Source: a phage. From it: DNA of 64,000 nucleotides. A model generated the notes under the pieces. It searched no databases. It was given only the letters and a program-made list of their open reading frames with translations, and was not told the origin of the DNA. This document shows positions 8,097 to 48,607 of this stretch, in pieces (position 1 is the stretch's first letter; each line of letters starts with the position of its first letter). The position numbers and the translations under genes were made by a program. Location of the stretch: the sequence record PZ452578.1, one strand, 5' to 3'.

Positions 8097-9380
8097 ATGG
8101 CTAAAATCAACGAACTTCTGCGCGAATCAACCACAACGAATAGCAACTCAATCGGTCGCCCAAATCTCGTTGCTTTGACTCGCGCTACCACTAAATTAAT
8201 ATATTCTGACATTGTAGCAACGCAAAGAACTAATCAACCTGTTGCTGCTTTTTATGGTATCAAATACCTTAACCCAGACAATGAATTTACATTTAAAACT
8301 GGTGCTACTTACGCTGGCGAAGCTGGATATGTAGACCGAGAACAAATCACAGAATTAACAGAAGAGTCTAAATTAACTCTCAATAAAGGCGATTTTTTCA
8401 AATATAATAATATCGTTTATAAAGTATTAGAAGATACTCCATTTGCTGATATTGAAGAAAGCGATTTAGAATTAGCTCTTCAGATTGCAATTGTTCTTTT
8501 AAAGGTTCGTCTATTTTCTGACGCAGCGTCAACAAGCAAATTTGAAAGCTCTGATAGCGAAATTGCGGATGCTAGATTCCAGATTAATAAATGGCAAACC
8601 GCCGTTAAATCTCGTAAACTTAAAACTGGCATTACAGTTGAATTGGCTCAAGATTTAGAAGCAAACGGATTCGACGCTCCTAATTTCCTGGAAGATTTGC
8701 TTGCAACTGAAATGGCAGATGAAATCAATAAAGATATTCTGCAGTCTTTGATTACAGTATCAAAACGTTATAAAGTTACAGGAATTACTGATACTGGATT
8801 CATTGATTTGAGTTATGCATCTGCTCCTGAAGCAGGTCGTTCATTATACCGAATGGTATGTGAAATGGTTTCGCATATCCAAAAAGAATCAACTTATACA
8901 GCAACGTTCTGTGTTGCTTCTGCTCGTGCCGCTGCGATTCTTGCTGCATCAGGTTGGTTAAAACATAAACCAGAAGATGATAAATATCTCTCACAAAATG
9001 CCTATGGGTTCTTAGCTAATGGTTTACCGCTTTATTGCGATACTAACAGCCCATTAGATTATGTAATCGTTGGCGTAGTAGAAAATATCGGTGAAAAAGA
9101 AATTGTTGGATCAATTTTCTATGCTCCGTATACAGAAGGTCTTGACTTAGATGACCCTGAACATGTTGGCGCATTTAAAGTTGTAGTTGACCCAGAAAGT
9201 TTGCAGCCATCTATCGGTTTATTAGTTAGATATGCTTTATCTGCAAATCCTTACACTGTAGCAAAAGATGAAAAAGAAGCAAGAATAATTGACGGTGGAG
9301 ACATGGATAAAATGGCAGGTCGTTCAGATTTGTCTGTTTTATTAGGTGTTAAATTACCAAAAATTATTGTTGATGAATAA
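8097..9380 (+). CDS. 24: Capsid vertex protein gp24
   Basis: 427 aa, T4 gp24 length; follows 23. Confidence 0.92.
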   Translation: MAKINELLRESTTTNSNSIGRPNLVALTRATTKLIYSDIVATQRTNQPVAAFYGIKYLNPDNEFTFKTGATYAGEAGYVDREQITELTEESKLTLNKGDFFKYNNIVYKVLEDTPFADIEESDLELALQIAIVLLKVRLFSDAASTSKFESSDSEIADARFQINKWQTAVKSRKLKTGITVELAQDLEANGFDAPNFLEDLLATEMADEINKDILQSLITVSKRYKVTGITDTGFIDLSYASAPEAGRSLYRMVCEMVSHIQKESTYTATFCVASARAAAILAASGWLKHKPEDDKYLSQNAYGFLANGLPLYCDTNSPLDYVIVGVVENIGEKEIVGSIFYAPYTEGLDLDDPEHVGAFKVVVDPESLQPSIGLLVRYALSANPYTVAKDEKEARIIDGGDMDKMAGRSDLSVLLGVKLPKIIVDE

Positions 9381-23287: not shown

Positions 23288-23291
23288 CAAT

Positions 23292-23320
23292 GGGGACCTT
23301 TCGGTCCCCATATTTTTATT
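23292..23320. terminator. Bidirectional terminator between gene 54 (+) and the 96 aa minus-strand ORF
   Basis: GGGGACC-TTTC-GGTCCCC hairpin with T-rich flank. Confidence 0.8.
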
Positions 23321-23606
23321 TACGGAATGAAATGAAAGCAGAAACTGAAGCAACTAAACTGTCTTCAATATAAACTTCAATTTTTACCGGAGCTTCTGAC
23401 TCAAATTTACCTGTTACTACACCCTGAAAAATACTTTCAGTTTGTTCTGGCTTTGAAAAATTTTCAGAAGGAAAAATTCCGAACTTTTTATCTGTTCCAA
23501 AAATTTTAATAAATTCATCGTAAACTGCTTCATTAAAAGCATTATCAGCAGGAATAACGCCTTCAACTACAAGTTCTTGACCTAAAAAGCGCAAAGAAGA
23601 TTTCAT
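23316..23606 (-). CDS. Hypothetical early protein
   Basis: 96 aa ORF with a GAGGAA RBS, directly downstream of an early promoter. Confidence 0.75.
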   Translation of the reverse strand: MKSSLRFLGQELVVEGVIPADNAFNEAVYDEFIKIFGTDKKFGIFPSENFSKPEQTESIFQGVVTGKFESEAPVKIEVYIEDSLVASVSAFISFRK

Positions 23607-23635
23607 TTTGTGTTCCTCATGTTATGTCAGTAAGA

Positions 23636-23667
23636 CTACTATAACACAACATAAGGGACTTGTAAAC
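23636..23667 (-). promoter_or_regulatory. Sigma70-like early promoter (-35 TTTACA, 17 bp spacer, -10 TATAGT)
   Basis: Read on the minus strand as GTTTACA...TATAGT; promoter plus leader nearly identical to the copy at 39134-39191. Confidence 0.7.
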
Positions 23668-25724
23668 TACATTTTGAACTTTTTAGACATTCCGTTGATG
23701 TTAACCAAAGAAGCCAAGATTTGAGAAACTTCGTTTTCCTCTTCTTTTGATTCTTCTACAAGAAATTGATTAAATCCAGCCATTGGACGAACTTCACCAG
23801 TTTCCATTAAATGGTCGCCATCATATACCGATTCCTCTAATTGTTCAGAAGGAGGAACGATTGTACCTTCGATTAGATACTTGTTATAAGCAGTTTCTTT
23901 CATAAAGTACGTACTTACTTTATTAATCTTCAGTAAAATTCCACGCGGTAGAATAACTTCAGCTTCTGATGGAAATCCTGATAAATGACCTGGAACGATA
24001 ACTTTGATTCGCTCAGCTCCTTTAATTACCATACCCACGCTAGTTTCAGCATCTTCATTAGCATATGTAGAATGACTACCCATATGCATCAAATCTTCTG
24101 CGTCAACTGAACCTTCTCCTTCACCAGAAAATACTGCGCCGGAATCATCTAGAGCCATATAGTTTTTACCATGCTCACCGAAGATATTTGGTTTAAGAGA
24201 TGTGGATACGAAGTTCTTGAAATAGAACATTTTGTTTTCAATGTTATGACGCAAAGTTTTAAAGGTAACTTCTTGTCCGCGATAAAGCGTAGTTCCTGGA
24301 GGAAGAACTGAACCTTTAGCGAATGCAGAATCCAACGTCTCGATGTTCTTAATAGCTCGTTCCATATATTCTTCACGGGTAGAATCTGGTTTACCCAAAA
24401 GGAACGAGTTCATTTCAACATATGAATCTGCACAATAATCTTCAATTACATCAGATTCGGCCTGAGTCAGTCCTTTTGGAGTTACTTCAGTGCTTGCGTA
24501 TTCATATGCCTGGGCAGCAGATTCATTAATCAATTTATAAATGCCATTCATTACAAATTGAATAATAGCTGTCTTTTCATCTGGCGTAGCTTTAGAACCT
24601 TTAACCAAATCATTGATAATTTTCTTAATAACATCAAAGCTATTAGAAATATTAATATCAGCAAGATCGCTTAAAATTTTATCAGTTTTATAATCAAAGA
24701 ATTCTTTATTCTTTAAATATTCTTGAGAACCTTGATATGTTATATCGCTCTGCAACTTGATAGATGGATCACGTAAACGTGCATGGGCCAATGCAATATG
24801 ATTTCGGAAGTTTTCTAGTTCATAATCGCTAGATTTAAAACGAGAAGCACTCCTCATACCACCGATAGCTCCTTTGCTAAAGTTTGAACCAATCTGGATA
24901 ACCCCGGAGTTCATCGGACCTTCTGCTTTATATACCGGAACTTTAGATTCAAACTCTTGATATTTCTTAGCAGCGAAGCTATCACCCTGAAGTGAAGCAT
25001 CAACAGTAGAATATTGAGCTTGTGCTGCTAATCGACGACTAATTTTAGTTTTCTGAATAACAGCTTGGTCAGTACGTTTATCATTTTCTAAAGCAATAGA
25101 AGCAGCAACAGCAACAGCTTTAGGAACAGCATTACCTGTTTTAACATCTACATAAACATCACCAACCTTTGATTCAACTTTTGTGAATAACTCAGTTGAA
25201 ATAGGAGGTACACCTGGAATGTCTTCTAAATTGGCATTTTTACGGTAAACCATAATATATGCATACTTTTTATCATAGTCCCAGATTTCCTTTAAAAGAA
25301 CATATCGACCTGCTCCTTTAGTACGTACTAAACGGTCAGCAATAACTTGCATTTGACGAGCTGCGCCATTTGTTTTACTTTTTAGTACGCGGAATAAGCA
25401 TGCGTCAATTTTATACTGCTTCATTGTTTGAAGAGCAGTATCAAAAACAGCGTTAATGACGCCAATTGGATTTCCACCCAAGTTTCTAAGCTTAACCAGC
25501 GATAATTTCTCGTTGACACCTATCATTACGATATGCATCATTTTATCGCCTGGCTTAACGTTTTTATTCGTATCACCGCCAGAGGTGTATGTACAAAATC
25601 TAAATCCAGGAAGCACGCTTTCTTCGCCGGCTTGAATAGCAAAAATTTGTGGTATTTTATGCTTAGGATTTAAGTTAACAACCGGCGCCGAAGCGCCGTC
25701 AAATAATTCTGTAATAAGTTCCAT
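23667..25724 (-). CDS. Alt-family ADP-ribosyltransferase, downstream copy
   Basis: 685 aa; N-terminal 230 aa closely matches the adjacent 698 aa paralog; C-terminal half has R (LYRGQ), STS (FVSTSL) and catalytic E (SEAEVILPRG) motifs of R-S-E ARTs. Confidence 0.85.
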   Translation of the reverse strand: MELITELFDGASAPVVNLNPKHKIPQIFAIQAGEESVLPGFRFCTYTSGGDTNKNVKPGDKMMHIVMIGVNEKLSLVKLRNLGGNPIGVINAVFDTALQTMKQYKIDACLFRVLKSKTNGAARQMQVIADRLVRTKGAGRYVLLKEIWDYDKKYAYIMVYRKNANLEDIPGVPPISTELFTKVESKVGDVYVDVKTGNAVPKAVAVAASIALENDKRTDQAVIQKTKISRRLAAQAQYSTVDASLQGDSFAAKKYQEFESKVPVYKAEGPMNSGVIQIGSNFSKGAIGGMRSASRFKSSDYELENFRNHIALAHARLRDPSIKLQSDITYQGSQEYLKNKEFFDYKTDKILSDLADINISNSFDVIKKIINDLVKGSKATPDEKTAIIQFVMNGIYKLINESAAQAYEYASTEVTPKGLTQAESDVIEDYCADSYVEMNSFLLGKPDSTREEYMERAIKNIETLDSAFAKGSVLPPGTTLYRGQEVTFKTLRHNIENKMFYFKNFVSTSLKPNIFGEHGKNYMALDDSGAVFSGEGEGSVDAEDLMHMGSHSTYANEDAETSVGMVIKGAERIKVIVPGHLSGFPSEAEVILPRGILLKINKVSTYFMKETAYNKYLIEGTIVPPSEQLEESVYDGDHLMETGEVRPMAGFNQFLVEESKEEENEVSQILASLVNINGMSKKFKM

Positions 25725-25727
25725 GAT

Positions 25728-27824
25728 TTATCCTTGAACGAACTTGTAAGGTATGTTTGTAATATCTATGCAAGACGCAATAATTCCAAGAGATGATTCT
25801 ACTTTCTGTTTAACATTTGATGAAACAAATGATGCAAAGTCAACTCTGCCTTCTATTTCAATATCACCTGTCATTGCAACTACTTCGCCGGTTTCCATTA
25901 AACGGTCACCGTCATAAATTACCGATTCGGTGAGTTCTTCGGTGGTCATAACTTCAGCTTGAATGAGTTTTGTATTATTAGACGTGGTTCCGTCATTATT
26001 AGAAGCATCAGTTATTTTATTAACTTTGACCATCAATCCGCGCGGCAGAATAACTTCGGCTTCTGTTGCTATTCCGAGACTTCCTGGATATACAACATTA
26101 ACTTTATGAGCTCCATCAATTGCCCATCCTATTTGAACTTTAACGTATTCAGGATTTTCTTTATACGCTCTTATTTCGTTTGGATTAATAGTTATTCCTT
26201 CTTCATTTTTATCAACTGTTAATTCATTGCGAGCTTCTGGTTCTAAAAGACCAATACCAGCATGTGTAATTCCAAAACGTCCAAAAATGATAGGAGTTAA
26301 AGAAGTAGATACAAAATTTCTGAAATAGAACACTTTATTTTTAACTAGTGCTTCGTATATAGGAGCAGTCATACTTTGAGCACGATAAACTGTAATGCCT
26401 TCCGGTATGCGGTCACCATTTTCAAAAGCTGAATCTAAATTATTTATAGCAGATTCAATTTCTTTTTCACTCATTACATCATATCGTTCTGGATTGTAAC
26501 GACCTAAAAGAAGATTATTAATGTCTGTATATCCTGAACCACAATATTCTCTAATGCCGCGCTTTTGTGATGGAGTATATTTAGAACCATCACGGGCAAT
26601 AGTAATATCAATCATTGGACCTGCACCAATTCCAGAAAAGCTATAAATCATTCGTTTGAGGAATTTAGTTTTTGCTGCATTCCAGGCATTTTTAGTTATT
26701 TCTCCCCAGACTTCATCTGGTTGCCCTTTACGAGTTTTATTATGTTTATCAAGCCAATTATCTTTATATTCTTCAAAGAATTTATTAACAGCTGCTGCGT
26801 ATTTCTCTAAACATTTTATTGAAGTAGTTGGCTCATTTTTTATCGCATTGAGAATTACATCTTTAATTTTTTCAGAAACTTCATCAACCTCACTTTTTGA
26901 AAAGAATTTATAGTCATAGTGAAGTTCATTCGCAGTTCCTTCGGCAATAATTTTTGCTGCCTTAGTTTTAGAAGCTAATGAATTAATTCCAAGCTTCATT
27001 TCTTCTGCTTCGGGAATTAAAGGAGCGGTAGCAGGTTTATTGAAATTAGCTGCGGTAGATTCATACTTCTGGAATAATTCACTTTCAAATCTAGAAGATT
27101 CCAATGATTGACTTTGCGCAATTGCTCTACGGGAAATTTTAACTTTAACGATTACAGCTTGGTCAGAACGTTTATCATTTTCTTGCGCAATAGATGCTGC
27201 AATTGCCTCATTTTTAGTTACTTGGGCTCCAGTATCTTTATTGATATAAACATCACCGACCTTCGATTCAACTTTAGTAAAGAGCTCGGTACTAATTTCC
27301 GGAACTCCTGGAATGTCTTCTAGTGATACATTTTTACGATGTATAAGAATATATGCATACTTTTTATCATAATCCCAGAGTTCCTTAAGAAGGACGTATC
27401 TGCCACCTGAACGACTACGGATAAGTCTATCAGCAATAACTTGAATTTGTCGAGCTTGGCCAGCAGTTTTAGACTTAAGAATACGAAGCATACAAGCATC
27501 AATTTTATACTGACGCATCGTTTGCATTGCAACAGTAAAAACTGAATTGATATAATTAATTGGGCTTGGACCAAGACCTTTTAATTTAGCAATTGAACCT
27601 TTAGCAGTTAATGTAAAAGGAACAATATGCATCATTTTATCGCCCATCTTTAAATCGCGATTAGTATCACCTCCAGATGTATAGGTACATAAACGAAAGC
27701 CTGGTTGTTCAATTGCATCATCAACATGAACTGAAAAAATTTGCGGTATTTTCTTCTTTGGATTTAAGTTTGTAATCGGAAGAGTAGTATCTTCGTCAAA
27801 TAATTCTGTAATAAGTTCCATCAT
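25728..27824 (-). CDS. alt: Alt ADP-ribosyltransferase, upstream copy
   Basis: 698 aa; N-terminus MMELITELFDEDTTLPITNLNPKK; motifs VYRAQ, FVSTSL, TEAEVILPRG; 3 nt from the downstream paralog. Confidence 0.88.
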   Translation of the reverse strand: MMELITELFDEDTTLPITNLNPKKKIPQIFSVHVDDAIEQPGFRLCTYTSGGDTNRDLKMGDKMMHIVPFTLTAKGSIAKLKGLGPSPINYINSVFTVAMQTMRQYKIDACMLRILKSKTAGQARQIQVIADRLIRSRSGGRYVLLKELWDYDKKYAYILIHRKNVSLEDIPGVPEISTELFTKVESKVGDVYINKDTGAQVTKNEAIAASIAQENDKRSDQAVIVKVKISRRAIAQSQSLESSRFESELFQKYESTAANFNKPATAPLIPEAEEMKLGINSLASKTKAAKIIAEGTANELHYDYKFFSKSEVDEVSEKIKDVILNAIKNEPTTSIKCLEKYAAAVNKFFEEYKDNWLDKHNKTRKGQPDEVWGEITKNAWNAAKTKFLKRMIYSFSGIGAGPMIDITIARDGSKYTPSQKRGIREYCGSGYTDINNLLLGRYNPERYDVMSEKEIESAINNLDSAFENGDRIPEGITVYRAQSMTAPIYEALVKNKVFYFRNFVSTSLTPIIFGRFGITHAGIGLLEPEARNELTVDKNEEGITINPNEIRAYKENPEYVKVQIGWAIDGAHKVNVVYPGSLGIATEAEVILPRGLMVKVNKITDASNNDGTTSNNTKLIQAEVMTTEELTESVIYDGDRLMETGEVVAMTGDIEIEGRVDFASFVSSNVKQKVESSLGIIASCIDITNIPYKFVQG

Positions 27825-27845
27825 AGCCTCTCTAGTGTTTATTCT

Positions 27846-27853
27846 ATTTATAA
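27846..27853 (-). promoter_or_regulatory. T4-type late promoter TATAAATA upstream of alt
   Basis: Minus strand reads TTTTATAAATAGAATAAACACTAGAGAGGCT ATG; sits just after a terminator hairpin. Confidence 0.6.
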
Positions 27854-32180: not shown

Positions 32181-32235
32181 GATGTTTAATTGCGGTACAG
32201 GTATATAATATCATATCCTGTACCAAAGTAAACAA

Positions 32236-32568
32236 TTATTTTACTACTTTCCAATGCTGCATGTCAAGTTTACCAACTTTTTTCATCTTCTCAATTAAGC
32301 GTTCTGCACGTTGACGAGCTGTAACATAATGCCATTCGCCTAATTCATTTTGTTCAATTTTTCCAACGATTACTGTATTCAATTCATAAATCCAACCAGT
32401 AAAGAAATTATGAACTTGAATTGTAAAGGTGAAATCTGTTCCCATACCTTCTGTTGTTTCTACTTCAATAATATCACCTTCAACTGCCATTAAGAACCAC
32501 ATAGTTTCATTATATTTACCATTGAAGCATTTAGTTTTAACTGCAGCGTTCAGATTAATCGTTTTCAT
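32236..32568 (-). CDS. Hypothetical protein
   Basis: 110 aa ORF with a GGAGAA RBS, downstream of an early promoter. Confidence 0.7.
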   Translation of the reverse strand: MKTINLNAAVKTKCFNGKYNETMWFLMAVEGDIIEVETTEGMGTDFTFTIQVHNFFTGWIYELNTVIVGKIEQNELGEWHYVTARQRAERLIEKMKKVGKLDMQHWKVVK

Positions 32569-38286: not shown

Positions 38287-38636
38287 TTAGAAAGGTCCTG
38301 GATGTCTTCTGCGAACTTGTTGAAGGAGTTGTTGATTTGTTTTTCAACCAATCCTGGCTTATGAGCCACCACATCCGCCTTCTTTGCATCTTTGCGCAGT
38401 TTTTCATTTTCACGCTCAATAGCAGCAATTGCCTCACGATTTTTATTATTCATCGCATCAATATAATTATACTGAATTCGCAAATTATCTAATGCTAAAG
38501 CGTTTTCATTGGCCGTTTTTGTAATTTCTACAACAGACGTTTCTAATCTTTCAATTTTATTTTTTAAAATTAAAGAAGTTCCGCCTAATGCAATTACAAT
38601 TAATAGCAAACCTGCTGTCGTATTACTTAATTGCAT
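38283..38636 (-). CDS. Putative inner-membrane spanin
   Basis: 117 aa; N-terminal hydrophobic helix TAGLLLIVIALGGTSLIL followed by charged coiled-coil-like sequence. Confidence 0.7.
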   Translation of the reverse strand: MQLSNTTAGLLLIVIALGGTSLILKNKIERLETSVVEITKTANENALALDNLRIQYNYIDAMNNKNREAIAAIERENEKLRKDAKKADVVAHKPGLVEKQINNSFNKFAEDIQDLSK

Positions 38637-39133
38637 AAAGTTTTAATAACCTCTATAATATCGTCTTGAGAAAGACCGTTAATTAAAATATGATGTTCAG
38701 CTGGAGATTTAGAAATTTTAAAGCATGCCTCAACATCTTCTGCCATATCCGATGCACTACGATTTGGATTACTAATACCAAGGCGGTGTTTTCCCGTCAA
38801 AGGATTAACGATGATATAGCATTTGCAGCTATTGATATGAACATTGGGTTGAGTCTGATTAATGAACACTTCACAATCATACTTAGCGAGTTGATTTTCT
38901 AAAAAGACTTTCATCTCTTCAACCGCATCAGGAAGCATATCACGGGCTTGCTCAAGACGACGATTTCGATATTCTTTAATGGTCGTTTTCCGCTTGACTT
39001 GCTTAGCTAAATCTTTCTTAAGATCGGTGATATATCCAACTCGACGATTTCCTTTGAATACAGAAATCCCATCTGTAGTATCACCGTATGCTTCAACGAC
39101 CATTTCAGTAGTAATAAGCTGCAAATCCATCAT
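38627..39133 (-). CDS. alc: Alc, inhibitor of host transcription
   Basis: 168 aa versus 167 in T4; position between rnlA and pseT; early promoter directly upstream. Confidence 0.75.
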   Translation of the reverse strand: MMDLQLITTEMVVEAYGDTTDGISVFKGNRRVGYITDLKKDLAKQVKRKTTIKEYRNRRLEQARDMLPDAVEEMKVFLENQLAKYDCEVFINQTQPNVHINSCKCYIIVNPLTGKHRLGISNPNRSASDMAEDVEACFKISKSPAEHHILINGLSQDDIIEVIKTLCN

Positions 39134-39191
39134 AAAGTCCTCATGTTATGTCAGTAAGACTACTATAACACAACACGAGGGACTTGTAAAC
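39134..39191 (-). promoter_or_regulatory. Sigma70-like early promoter with conserved leader (-35 TTTACA, -10 TATAGT)
   Basis: Minus strand GTTTACAAGTCCCTCGTGTTGTGTTATAGTAGTCTTACTGACATAACATGAGG; second copy of the cassette at 23607-23667. Confidence 0.7.
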
Positions 39192-39194
39192 AAC

Positions 39195-40782
<1,588 letters not shown>

Positions 40783-47619: not shown

Positions 47620-47847
47620 TTATTTTTGGATTAAGCCCATATAAAATTTAGCATCTTCAGGATACATGCCATCACAATACTCATTGGTCATAAAACTAAT
47701 AAGGTCTTCAAGAGGACCTTGGACCTCAATTTGAATACTAAAGAATTGGGTATCTTTAATGTAAGCCATACTCAAAGAAGGATAACGATTGCGGATAACT
47801 TCGTAAGTGTATTCAAAATCAACAATATCAATATTAACCTTAGCCAT
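47620..47847 (-). CDS. Small early protein, paralog A
   Basis: 75 aa from the [13 protein letters not shown] start (RBS GAGGA); paralog of the ORF at 48334-48564. Confidence 0.7.
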
Positions 47848-47876
47848 TTTATTTTCCTCATGTAGTTGATAGGGTA

Positions 47877-48333: not shown

Positions 48334-48564
48334 TTATTGTTCAATCAGTCCCATGTAAAATTCTGCGTCTTCAGAATCCATGCCATCACAATATTCATTA
48401 GCCATAAAGCGGGTAAGGTCTTCAAGAGGACCTTCAATGACAATAGAAAAATTGCAATAATTGGGATCATCATGAATACTTGTGATACTAAGTTCAGGAT
48501 AACGATTACGAATAATTTCTTCGATATATTCAAAATCAACGATGTCAATATCAACTTTAGCCAT
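48334..48564 (-). CDS. Small early protein, paralog B
   Basis: 76 aa from the [13 protein letters not shown] start (RBS AAAGAGGAA); shared motifs with paralog A. Confidence 0.7.
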
Positions 48565-48607
48565 ATTATTTTCCTCTTTAATCATCAGCAGTATTGCCGA
48601 TAGTTGT

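Follow-up and report, generated by a model that had tools for sequence, protein, structure and literature searches.

Two near-identical early promoter-leader cassettes at alc and alt.-3 of a T4-like phage, with a predicted promoter-spanning hairpin that takes in the SD

Among virulent phages, T4 serves as the reference for how genes are controlled in time, and RBS-hiding hairpins that are freed by an internal promoter are textbook knowledge for a few late genes. In T4, the genes e, soc, 49 and I-TevI possess an RBS-sequestering hairpin with an internal promoter, and mobE of Aeh1 has a hairpin of the same type; the review that describes these cases does not mention alc (PMC3014915). T4-type phages additionally contain PeSLs, which are repeated cassettes of a sigma-70 promoter, a stem-loop and an SD, including a T4/PST pair with TTTACW-N17-TAYWAT (PMC2839356, PMC4122927). 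The early promoters of T4 share an extended consensus over UP, -35, TGn, -10 and further positions, and the mechanism by which they are shut off is incompletely explained (PMC2988021). A hairpin or a duplication at alc/alt.-3 is not described in the accessible literature, a scope outside of which the older T4 compilations lie (1994 book; Miller et al. 2003).

The DNA analysed here (termed the window; 64,000 nucleotides, sequence record PZ452578.1) is a segment of a Tequatrovirus (T4-like) genome whose early genes are encoded by the minus strand. Positions 39134-39191 are the intergenic stretch that separates rnlA from alc, both of which are minus-strand genes, and read GTTTACAAGTCCCTCGTGTTGTGTTATAGTAGTCTTACTGACATAACATGAGGActttATG on that strand. 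It holds a promoter and leader (cassette copy 2) whose features and neighbors are as follows:

39138..39191, minus strand: cassette copy 2, from the G of the -35 to the GAGGA of the SD, 5' of alc; identical to 23614-23667 at 52/54 positions
39185..39190, minus strand: -35 hexamer TTTACA (promoter scan); in T4 notation GTTTAC, 39191-39186
39162..39167, minus strand: -10 hexamer TATAGT, preceded by the TGn of an extended -10; located in the apical part of the hairpin
~39155, minus strand: predicted start site, an A seven nt 3' of the -10, placed by spacing
39161..39185, minus strand: 5' arm of the hairpin in the fold, which is the promoter spacer (AAGTCC-C-TCGTGTTGTGTT..AGTA)
39135..39156, minus strand: 3' arm of the hairpin, formed by the leader (TACT GACATAACATGA GGACTT) with the SD GAGG at 39139-39142
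38627..39133, minus strand: alc (host transcription inhibitor), served by copy 2; Pfam PF17527, E=8e-92, 98.8% identical to T4 Alc
39195..40355, minus strand: rnlA (RNA ligase 1; Pfam T4 RNA ligase 1), 5' of copy 2, with its stop codon 3 nt before GTTTAC

Cassette copy 1 lies 5' of alt.-3, in the following surroundings:

23614..23667, minus strand: cassette copy 1, with GTTTAC at 23667-23662, TATAGT at 23643-23638, SD GAGG at 23615-23618 and ATG at 23606
23316..23606, minus strand: alt.-3 (DUF5498 by domain match, 96 aa), the gene served by copy 1
23667..25724, minus strand: alt paralog (ADP-ribosyltransferase), 5' of copy 1; the last base of its TAG stop is the G of GTTTAC
23290..23311, no strand assigned: bidirectional intrinsic terminator that closes the alt.-3 transcription unit (9-bp stem, 6 GC pairs, T-run)
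27845-27852, minus strand: late-promoter motif TATAAATA, just upstream of the alt tandem

The alt tandem consists of two full-length paralogs on the minus strand (23667-25724 and 25728-27824) with about 72% nucleotide identity; T4, by contrast, has a single alt together with truncated remnants of a second copy, alt.-1 and alt.-2. Around both loci, the sequence is 97-99% identical to that of Shigella phage Sf22, RB27, RB32 and some 500 further records.

A promoter motif scan returned TTTACA-17-TATAGT with TG at both copies (10/12 match), and both display the GTTTAC(A), 17-nt spacer, TGn and TAnnnT of T4-type early sigma-70 promoters. The promoter is directly 5' of an early gene, on the early-gene strand and at a site that is conserved in relatives including T4, and some GenBank records annotate a "promoter" at the cassette site. 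Judged by these motifs, region 39134-39191 is a T4-type immediate-early sigma-70 promoter with GTTTACA, a 17-nt spacer, TGtTATAGT and a leader of about 22 nt that holds the alc SD.

The initial annotation described this region as the second of two near-identical copies of a promoter and 5' leader, and alignment bears this out: the copies agree at 52/54 positions from the -35 GTTTAC through the SD GAGGA, where the match stops, and their flanks are unrelated (about 40% identity on either side). A repeat search paired 39138-39194 with 23614-23670 at 95% over 57 nt (family D11). When the two promoter hexamers are left out, identity is 40/42 (95%), and the repeat thus withstands the threshold of 80% that had been set for identity outside the consensus hexamers. 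A search with the whole 64-nt element, exact or with 3 mismatches, returned only the element itself because its last 10 nt are not common to both copies. Among early promoters more generally, the four others with GTTTAC in the window match either copy at only 30-54% of positions, and the median pairwise identity of 36 T4 early promoters is 25/54, with the alc/alt.-3 pair topping all others at 53/54. The further claim that the two genes have identical translation initiation contexts has to be narrowed to similar ones, as the spacer between SD and AUG differs in length and sequence (CTTT/CTTTATG at one copy vs ACACAAA at the other).

Both copies are found at the same two sites in T4, where they differ at one base. 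BLAST with the 54 nt located the cassette in 500 phage records, all Tequatrovirus-like, at 999 places, nearly all records having two, and gave no match outside Tequatrovirus at E<=0.01. Because the cassette occurs in 500/500 Tequatrovirus records at essentially two places per genome, it does not appear to be currently mobile; by this distribution, it is a fixed genus-wide element rather than an actively moving one. Scans of IMG/VR yielded a handful of Tequatrovirus contigs only, and more distant relatives were drawn from an annotated phage collection. In Escherichia phages UPEC01 and UPEC07, the alc matches come in two pieces.

Folding of the cassette as RNA produced an interrupted hairpin of 22 bp for copy 2 (MFE -24.4 to -24.7 kcal/mol, z -4.3 to -6.0) and of 20 bp for copy 1 (MFE -21.2 kcal/mol, z -3.5 to -5.0), and 0/200 dinucleotide shuffles fold as well as either copy. 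The promoter spacer constitutes the 5' arm of this hairpin and the SD-containing leader its 3' arm, while the apex holds the -10 and the predicted start site. Rfam has no family for the region.

The regions upstream of alc and alt.-3 were compared across Gaprivervirus, Kanagawavirus, Mosigvirus, Gelderlandvirus, Karamvirus, Roskildevirus, Tegunavirus, Dhakavirus, Winklervirus, Marfavirus, Kagamiyamavirus and one unclassified Klebsiella phage. A GTTTAC early promoter is present at both sites in nearly all genera sampled, suggesting that the promoters are positionally ancient, and within a given sister genus the alc and alt.-3 promoters are only 61-74% alike. At alc, 9/11 Tevenvirinae genera have a spacer that directly follows GTTTACA and is reverse-complementary to the leader, with hairpins of -17.6 to -24.4 kcal/mol (z -3.3 to -6.4), and in eight of these nine the paired region takes in the SD. 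The two arms at alc are:

Kanagawavirus: ATCCCATTTTGTT / AACAAAATGGGGAT
Gelderlandvirus: TCTCCGTTTAGTT / AACTAAACGGAGA
Karamvirus: TCTCCATTTGGTT / AACCAAATGGAGA
Klebsiella phage phi1_146043: TCCTCATCAG / CTGATGAGGA
Roskildevirus: TCTCCTCAG / CTGAGGAGA
Dhakavirus: TCTCCTCAT / ATGAGGAGA
Winklervirus: TCCTCATTTTGTT / AACGAAATGAGGA
Tequatrovirus: AAGTCC(C)TCGTGTT / AACATGAGGACTT

The Tegunavirus alc hairpin brackets the -10 and ends just short of the SD, and folding revealed no spacer/SD hairpin at the Mosigvirus alc or at the rearranged Gaprivervirus alc locus. The spacer/SD hairpin design at alc is common, not universal. Gaprivervirus VR25 has, in the interval from rnlA to alc, a 77-aa ORF duplicating the N-terminal portion of alc, and 5' of this ORF a GC-rich hairpin (AAGGGGtgtacaaGCCCCTT) overlaps a TGTACA that resembles a -35.

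From genus to genus the arms vary in sequence yet stay complementary, indicating that the changes are compensatory. In a register-free duplex test across nine genera, cognate spacers and leaders paired with a mean of -20.8 kcal/mol vs -11.9 +/- 3.3 for non-cognate combinations, and the true spacer/leader assignment was better than all 100,000 permutations. A MAFFT alignment of eight alc promoters placed three genera out of register, and the count of pairs is that of the four in-register genera, in which 98% of cells are paired and 4/13 pairs have changed on both sides. The covariation score was reached by 0/500 shuffles, and slid registers pair in <=56% of cells.

Variants within Tequatrovirus are mostly pair-neutral or compensatory, with several falling in the bulge or loops. 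The spacer series CTCGTG, CTCATG and CTTATG pairs in each form with CATGAG via G.U wobbles, and a G->A change in copy 1 of T4 converts a U.G pair to U-A. The alt.-3 copy of PV654517 has CTTATG with CATAAG, which is a true double change, and its GTCCC->GTTCC change pairs perfectly with the GGAAC of its own flank (-26.9 kcal/mol). One pair is broken in each of two single-change variants. In the T4 examples, the sense strand is 6-10 kcal/mol more stable than the antisense strand owing to G.U pairs, which argues for RNA and not a DNA cruciform. Taken as a structure, the modeled hairpin, which is conserved, covaries, spans the promoter and buries the SD, is well supported.

No spacer-to-SD pairing was observed at the alt.-3 promoters of the other sampled genera, and outside Tequatrovirus the alt.-3 region from -35 to ATG folds with z between -2.3 and +0.4. 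Most of these promoters have a small spacer-internal hairpin (CCACAnGGATGTGG or a variant) and then a leader ending ACATGAGGA; the exception is Kanagawavirus, in which the alt.-3 spacer has its pairing partner at the beginning of the coding sequence. The spacer-internal hairpin, whose 3' arm overlaps the TGTG of the extended -10, is conserved at alt.-3 in several genera and, with its variants, is also found at the Mosigvirus alc and at T4 positions 2458, 50973 and 167086.

The sequence evidence favors copying of the cassette as one unit, and the alc cassette was probably copied onto alt.-3 in a Tequatrovirus ancestor. A patch of about 40-46 nt would have replaced part of the alt.-3 promoter, 15.5 kb away, via ectopic recombination or conversion, and its edges would be motifs already common to both promoters, GTTTACA and ACATGAGGA. 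We infer the direction from alc to alt.-3 because the anti-SD design is usual at alc across genera and absent at alt.-3 outside Tequatrovirus, and because copy 1 has retained flanks (AAAATGTAGTTTACA... and ...GAGGAACACAAAATG) that are like those of alt.-3 orthologues (e.g. IME08, VR25). An origin at alc is also indicated by the AAGTCC of the 5' arm, which finds its pairing partner in the alc-specific flank GGACTT but not in the alt.-3 flank. A continuing gene conversion between the two copies, considered separately, was not established: one joint variant (TACAGT, in both copies of PV654517) stands against several copy-specific ones.

These results support one part of the initial annotation, which held that such a repeat would be unusual unless the cassette had moved as a unit. 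Copying as a unit is favored by the likeness of only 61-74% between the sister-genus promoters, by the distribution of the hairpin and by the AAGTCC/GGACTT match; repeated cassettes are, however, not unusual in T4, where other pairs reach 85-91%, and current mobility is not indicated. The annotation recognized the promoter-leader duplicate and raised its movement as a unit but missed that the promoter spacer is the anti-SD arm of a conserved hairpin.

We propose that the hairpin forms part of an RNA switch that gates translation. As the 5' arm is located upstream of the predicted +1, it would be present in read-through RNA only. Transcripts entering from upstream, from rnlA and beyond at alc and with late alt mRNA among those at alt.-3, would carry both arms, and the resulting 20-22 bp hairpin would bury the SD. 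A transcript from the cassette's own promoter would start within the apical stretch of the hairpin, would not contain the 5' arm and would have a free SD, such that translation of alc and alt.-3 would be confined to the period in which their own early promoter is active. At alc, read-through is expected because the rnlA stop is 3 nt from GTTTAC and a terminator scan found no terminator between denA, rnlA and alc; it is expected at alt.-3 because TATAAATA is positioned upstream of the alt tandem and the sole terminator comes after alt.-3.

Partition-function calculations gave an SD unpaired probability for copy 2 of 0.01 in read-through RNA vs 0.76 in its own transcript. For both copies, the corresponding ranges are 0.00-0.01 and 0.2-0.8, with the alt.-3 SD only 0.22 unpaired in its own transcript in the thermodynamic model. 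On these models, the hairpin is plausible as an early-only translation gate; any benefit of early-only translation to alc or alt.-3 is speculative, and the hairpin could alternatively function in RNA processing or stability. The reading as a whole, in which an ancestral alc early promoter had a patch copied to alt.-3 and carries an RNA switch that gates translation, is in our judgment somewhat on the probable side.

Several other explanations bear on the repeat and its stem-loop. Two strong early promoters might be alike simply through the long T4 consensus or through convergence, with no copying and no extra function, and both the extended consensus that T4 early promoters share (PMC2988021) and the presence of an early promoter at both sites in every genus examined, which makes the promoters positionally ancient, are in keeping with this idea. 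However, the copies are 95% identical outside the hexamers, compared to 30-54% for the other promoters of the window and a median of 25/54 in T4; the sister-genus promoters at the same two sites are 61-74% alike; and the identity extends over spacer and leader (AAGTCCCTCGTG...CTGACATAACATG), which the consensus does not specify. Resemblance by consensus or convergence is already disfavored on this sequence comparison, and we give it almost no credence. A PeSL-type mobile cassette would instead be a composite terminator/promoter that serves as a recombination linker shuffling genes between phages, with the hairpin as a terminator or attenuator of upstream transcription. PeSLs are themselves repeated cassettes with a sigma-70 promoter, a stem-loop and an SD (PMC2839356, PMC4122927), the origin proposed for copy 1 by recombination within short common motifs would fit PeSL-mediated exchange, T4 has other near-identical promoter-leader families, and in the cassette a strong sigma-70-like early promoter is indeed followed by an SD and a start codon. 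The stem-loop spans the promoter rather than preceding it, though, and upstream there is only a 5-bp TATCC/GGATA stem inside rnlA at copy 2 and none at copy 1. Additionally, the hairpin is not consistently followed by a U-tract (copy 1: GGAACACAAAAUG), neither copy gave an intrinsic terminator in the terminator scan, and the SD consistently forms the 3' arm, for which a terminator has no need. Rather than many dispersed, indel-linked copies in hyperplastic regions, there are only two, at conserved positions in 500/500 records (999 places) and with no indel association, and recombination of these direct copies would delete 15.5 kb including genes 30 and 31, which are essential in T4. We consider a PeSL-type cassette improbable.

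Other accounts concern what the inverted repeat does. The read-through hairpin may be an element of RNA processing or stability, whether as an RNase III site, as 3' protection of rnlA/alt mRNA or as a shield of the SD against RegB or other nucleases. With 20-22 bp, its interrupted helix falls within the lengths on which RNase III acts, other genera have GGAG(A) as the alc SD, and about half of the T4 early promoters have -10-bracketing hairpins that leave out the SD, suggesting a function that is not tied to it. On the other hand, the 3' arm is precisely the SD in eight genera and at at least five further T4 promoters, several genera have stems of only 9-13 bp, which is short for RNase III, and the Tequatrovirus SD is GAGGA without GGAG. 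We regard a role in processing or stability as unlikely but worth keeping in mind, and, since a structure that buries the SD would also block initiation, it is compatible with the proposed translational gate. The inverted repeat could also act in DNA, either by extruding a cruciform or by binding a dimeric protein through which the early promoter is regulated or shut off; the repeat brackets the -10 and start site, a natural position for an operator, and the shut-off of T4 early promoters is, as stated above, incompletely explained (PMC2988021). Yet the arms vary between genera with their complementarity kept, which is a signature of base pairing and not of protein recognition, and in the T4 examples only the sense strand is stable, via G.U pairs. 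The arms are moreover bulged and 8-21 nt or more apart, which is unfavorable for cruciform extrusion. Variable yet complementary arms and sense-strand-only stability make a DNA cruciform or operator disfavored, and we deem it very improbable.

Having set out these alternatives, we return to the hairpin as a translational gate and to its possible occurrence at other promoters. Early promoters were scanned in T4 (1-77 kb and 139-169 kb) and in the window, with a cut-off of <= -18 kcal/mol for cognate spacer/leader pairing (non-cognate background -7.2 +/- 3.2). In T4 (NC_000866), the spacer pairs with the downstream SD at -18 to -24 kcal/mol in the promoters at 8218 (motB.2), 62797 (regB), 166807 (ndd.4), 53943 (nrdC.8) and 65413 (denV), and most of these structures are sense-strand-specific via G.U pairs. 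The spacer-SD pairing at these five promoters suggests a general class. A hairpin that brackets only the -10 was found at many other promoters, among them those of ipII, dmd, mobD.2 and ipI and those at window positions 32233, 36217 and 47907.

These three window promoters (36217-36150, 32233-32170 and 47907-47850, minus strand) have perfect 7-13 bp inverted repeats around the -10, e.g. GGTAGAG...GCTCTACC and GGTACAGG...CCTGTACC, in which the 3' arm runs from +1 onward and excludes the SD; they look like a second "promoter in a hairpin" class. At 32625-32566 (minus strand), 5' of a 110-aa ORF (32236-32568), the spacer GGTTCCTTTGTG is complementary to the promoter's own SD region CACAAACAAAGGAGAA (-12.1 kcal/mol), and by this predicted pairing the promoter is a weaker example of the anti-SD design.

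Repeated leaders are also present elsewhere. A promoter-leader family in T4 (NC_000866 27080, 70696, 163673, 167086 and 55384) shares GGTACTATACAACTATCAACTACTGATAC(G/A)GA..TTGGAGAATAAAATG with 76-91% identity over 54 nt, and this multi-copy family indicates that repeated leaders are common in T4. Other near-identical T4 promoter-leader pairs agree at 49/54 and 46/54 positions (85-91%), and the PeSL papers describe the same kind of repeated promoter-leader cassette (PMC2839356, PMC4122927). Given these other families in T4, the alc/alt.-3 pair is an extreme case of a recurrent phenomenon rather than a singular oddity. The window itself has a direct repeat of about 240 nt with about 80% identity (47620-47859 vs 48334-48576) that includes a start-codon/SD region (…GCCATTTTATTTTCCTC, plus strand) and is probably a pair of small early genes that are paralogs and have similar sequences upstream.

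The anti-SD architecture is predicted in T4 for regB, motB.2, denV, ndd.4, nrdC.8, alc and alt.-3, and at alc it is kept with compensatory changes in at least eight genera. An immediate-early promoter inside an anti-SD/SD hairpin might be a general conserved design of the Tevenvirinae ("promoter-licensed translation") and not a peculiarity of alc; we advance this tentatively and with more doubt than our reading of the alc and alt.-3 loci. If true, it would help explain why the synthesis of some early proteins halts despite continued transcription from upstream middle/late promoters, and why middle/late transcripts with the same SD motifs resist RegB. An early-promoter version of the RBS-hiding hairpin would add a post-transcriptional layer to the shut-off of early proteins and give a directly testable account of why only some of the transcripts that contain a given coding sequence lead to its translation. 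The reuse at alt.-3 would be a concrete case of a regulatory cassette transplanted between genes, and, for annotation, a promoter spacer in these phages can hold RNA-level information.

Compared to the T4 early promoters described previously (Hinton 2010, PMC2988021; Wilkens & Rueger compilation), the promoter of the cassette is itself no different; the features not covered by the early-promoter consensus are that the two copies are nearly identical and that spacer and leader are complementary. The cassette is like PeSLs in being a repeated early promoter with a stem-loop, an SD and a start codon, and in that its second copy likely arose by recombination in short common motifs. It differs in that the PeSL stem-loop is a terminator upstream of the -35, whereas the hairpin of the cassette spans the promoter and ends in the SD, and in that PeSLs occur as many copies that cluster in hyperplastic regions and are tied to indels, whereas the cassette is present as two copies fixed genus-wide. 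In architecture, the cassette is also like e, soc, 49 and I-TevI. As in those genes, a predicted helix takes up the SD and has its 5' arm ahead of an internal promoter: in silico, the SD is base-paired in upstream-initiated transcripts, and with the +1 placed by spacing, the promoter is inside the hairpin and its own transcript is without the 5' arm, such that long transcripts are predicted to be untranslatable and proximal ones translatable. The motif TATAAATA of late promoters does not occur within the cassette, whose internal promoter is early sigma-70, and an early promoter inside an RBS-sequestering hairpin is what would set it apart from the known cases. The internal promoter of those genes is late (or middle) and the outcome is "translate only late", whereas the switch predicted at alc and alt.-3, in which the promoter's own spacer provides the 5' arm, is early and would be "translate only early".
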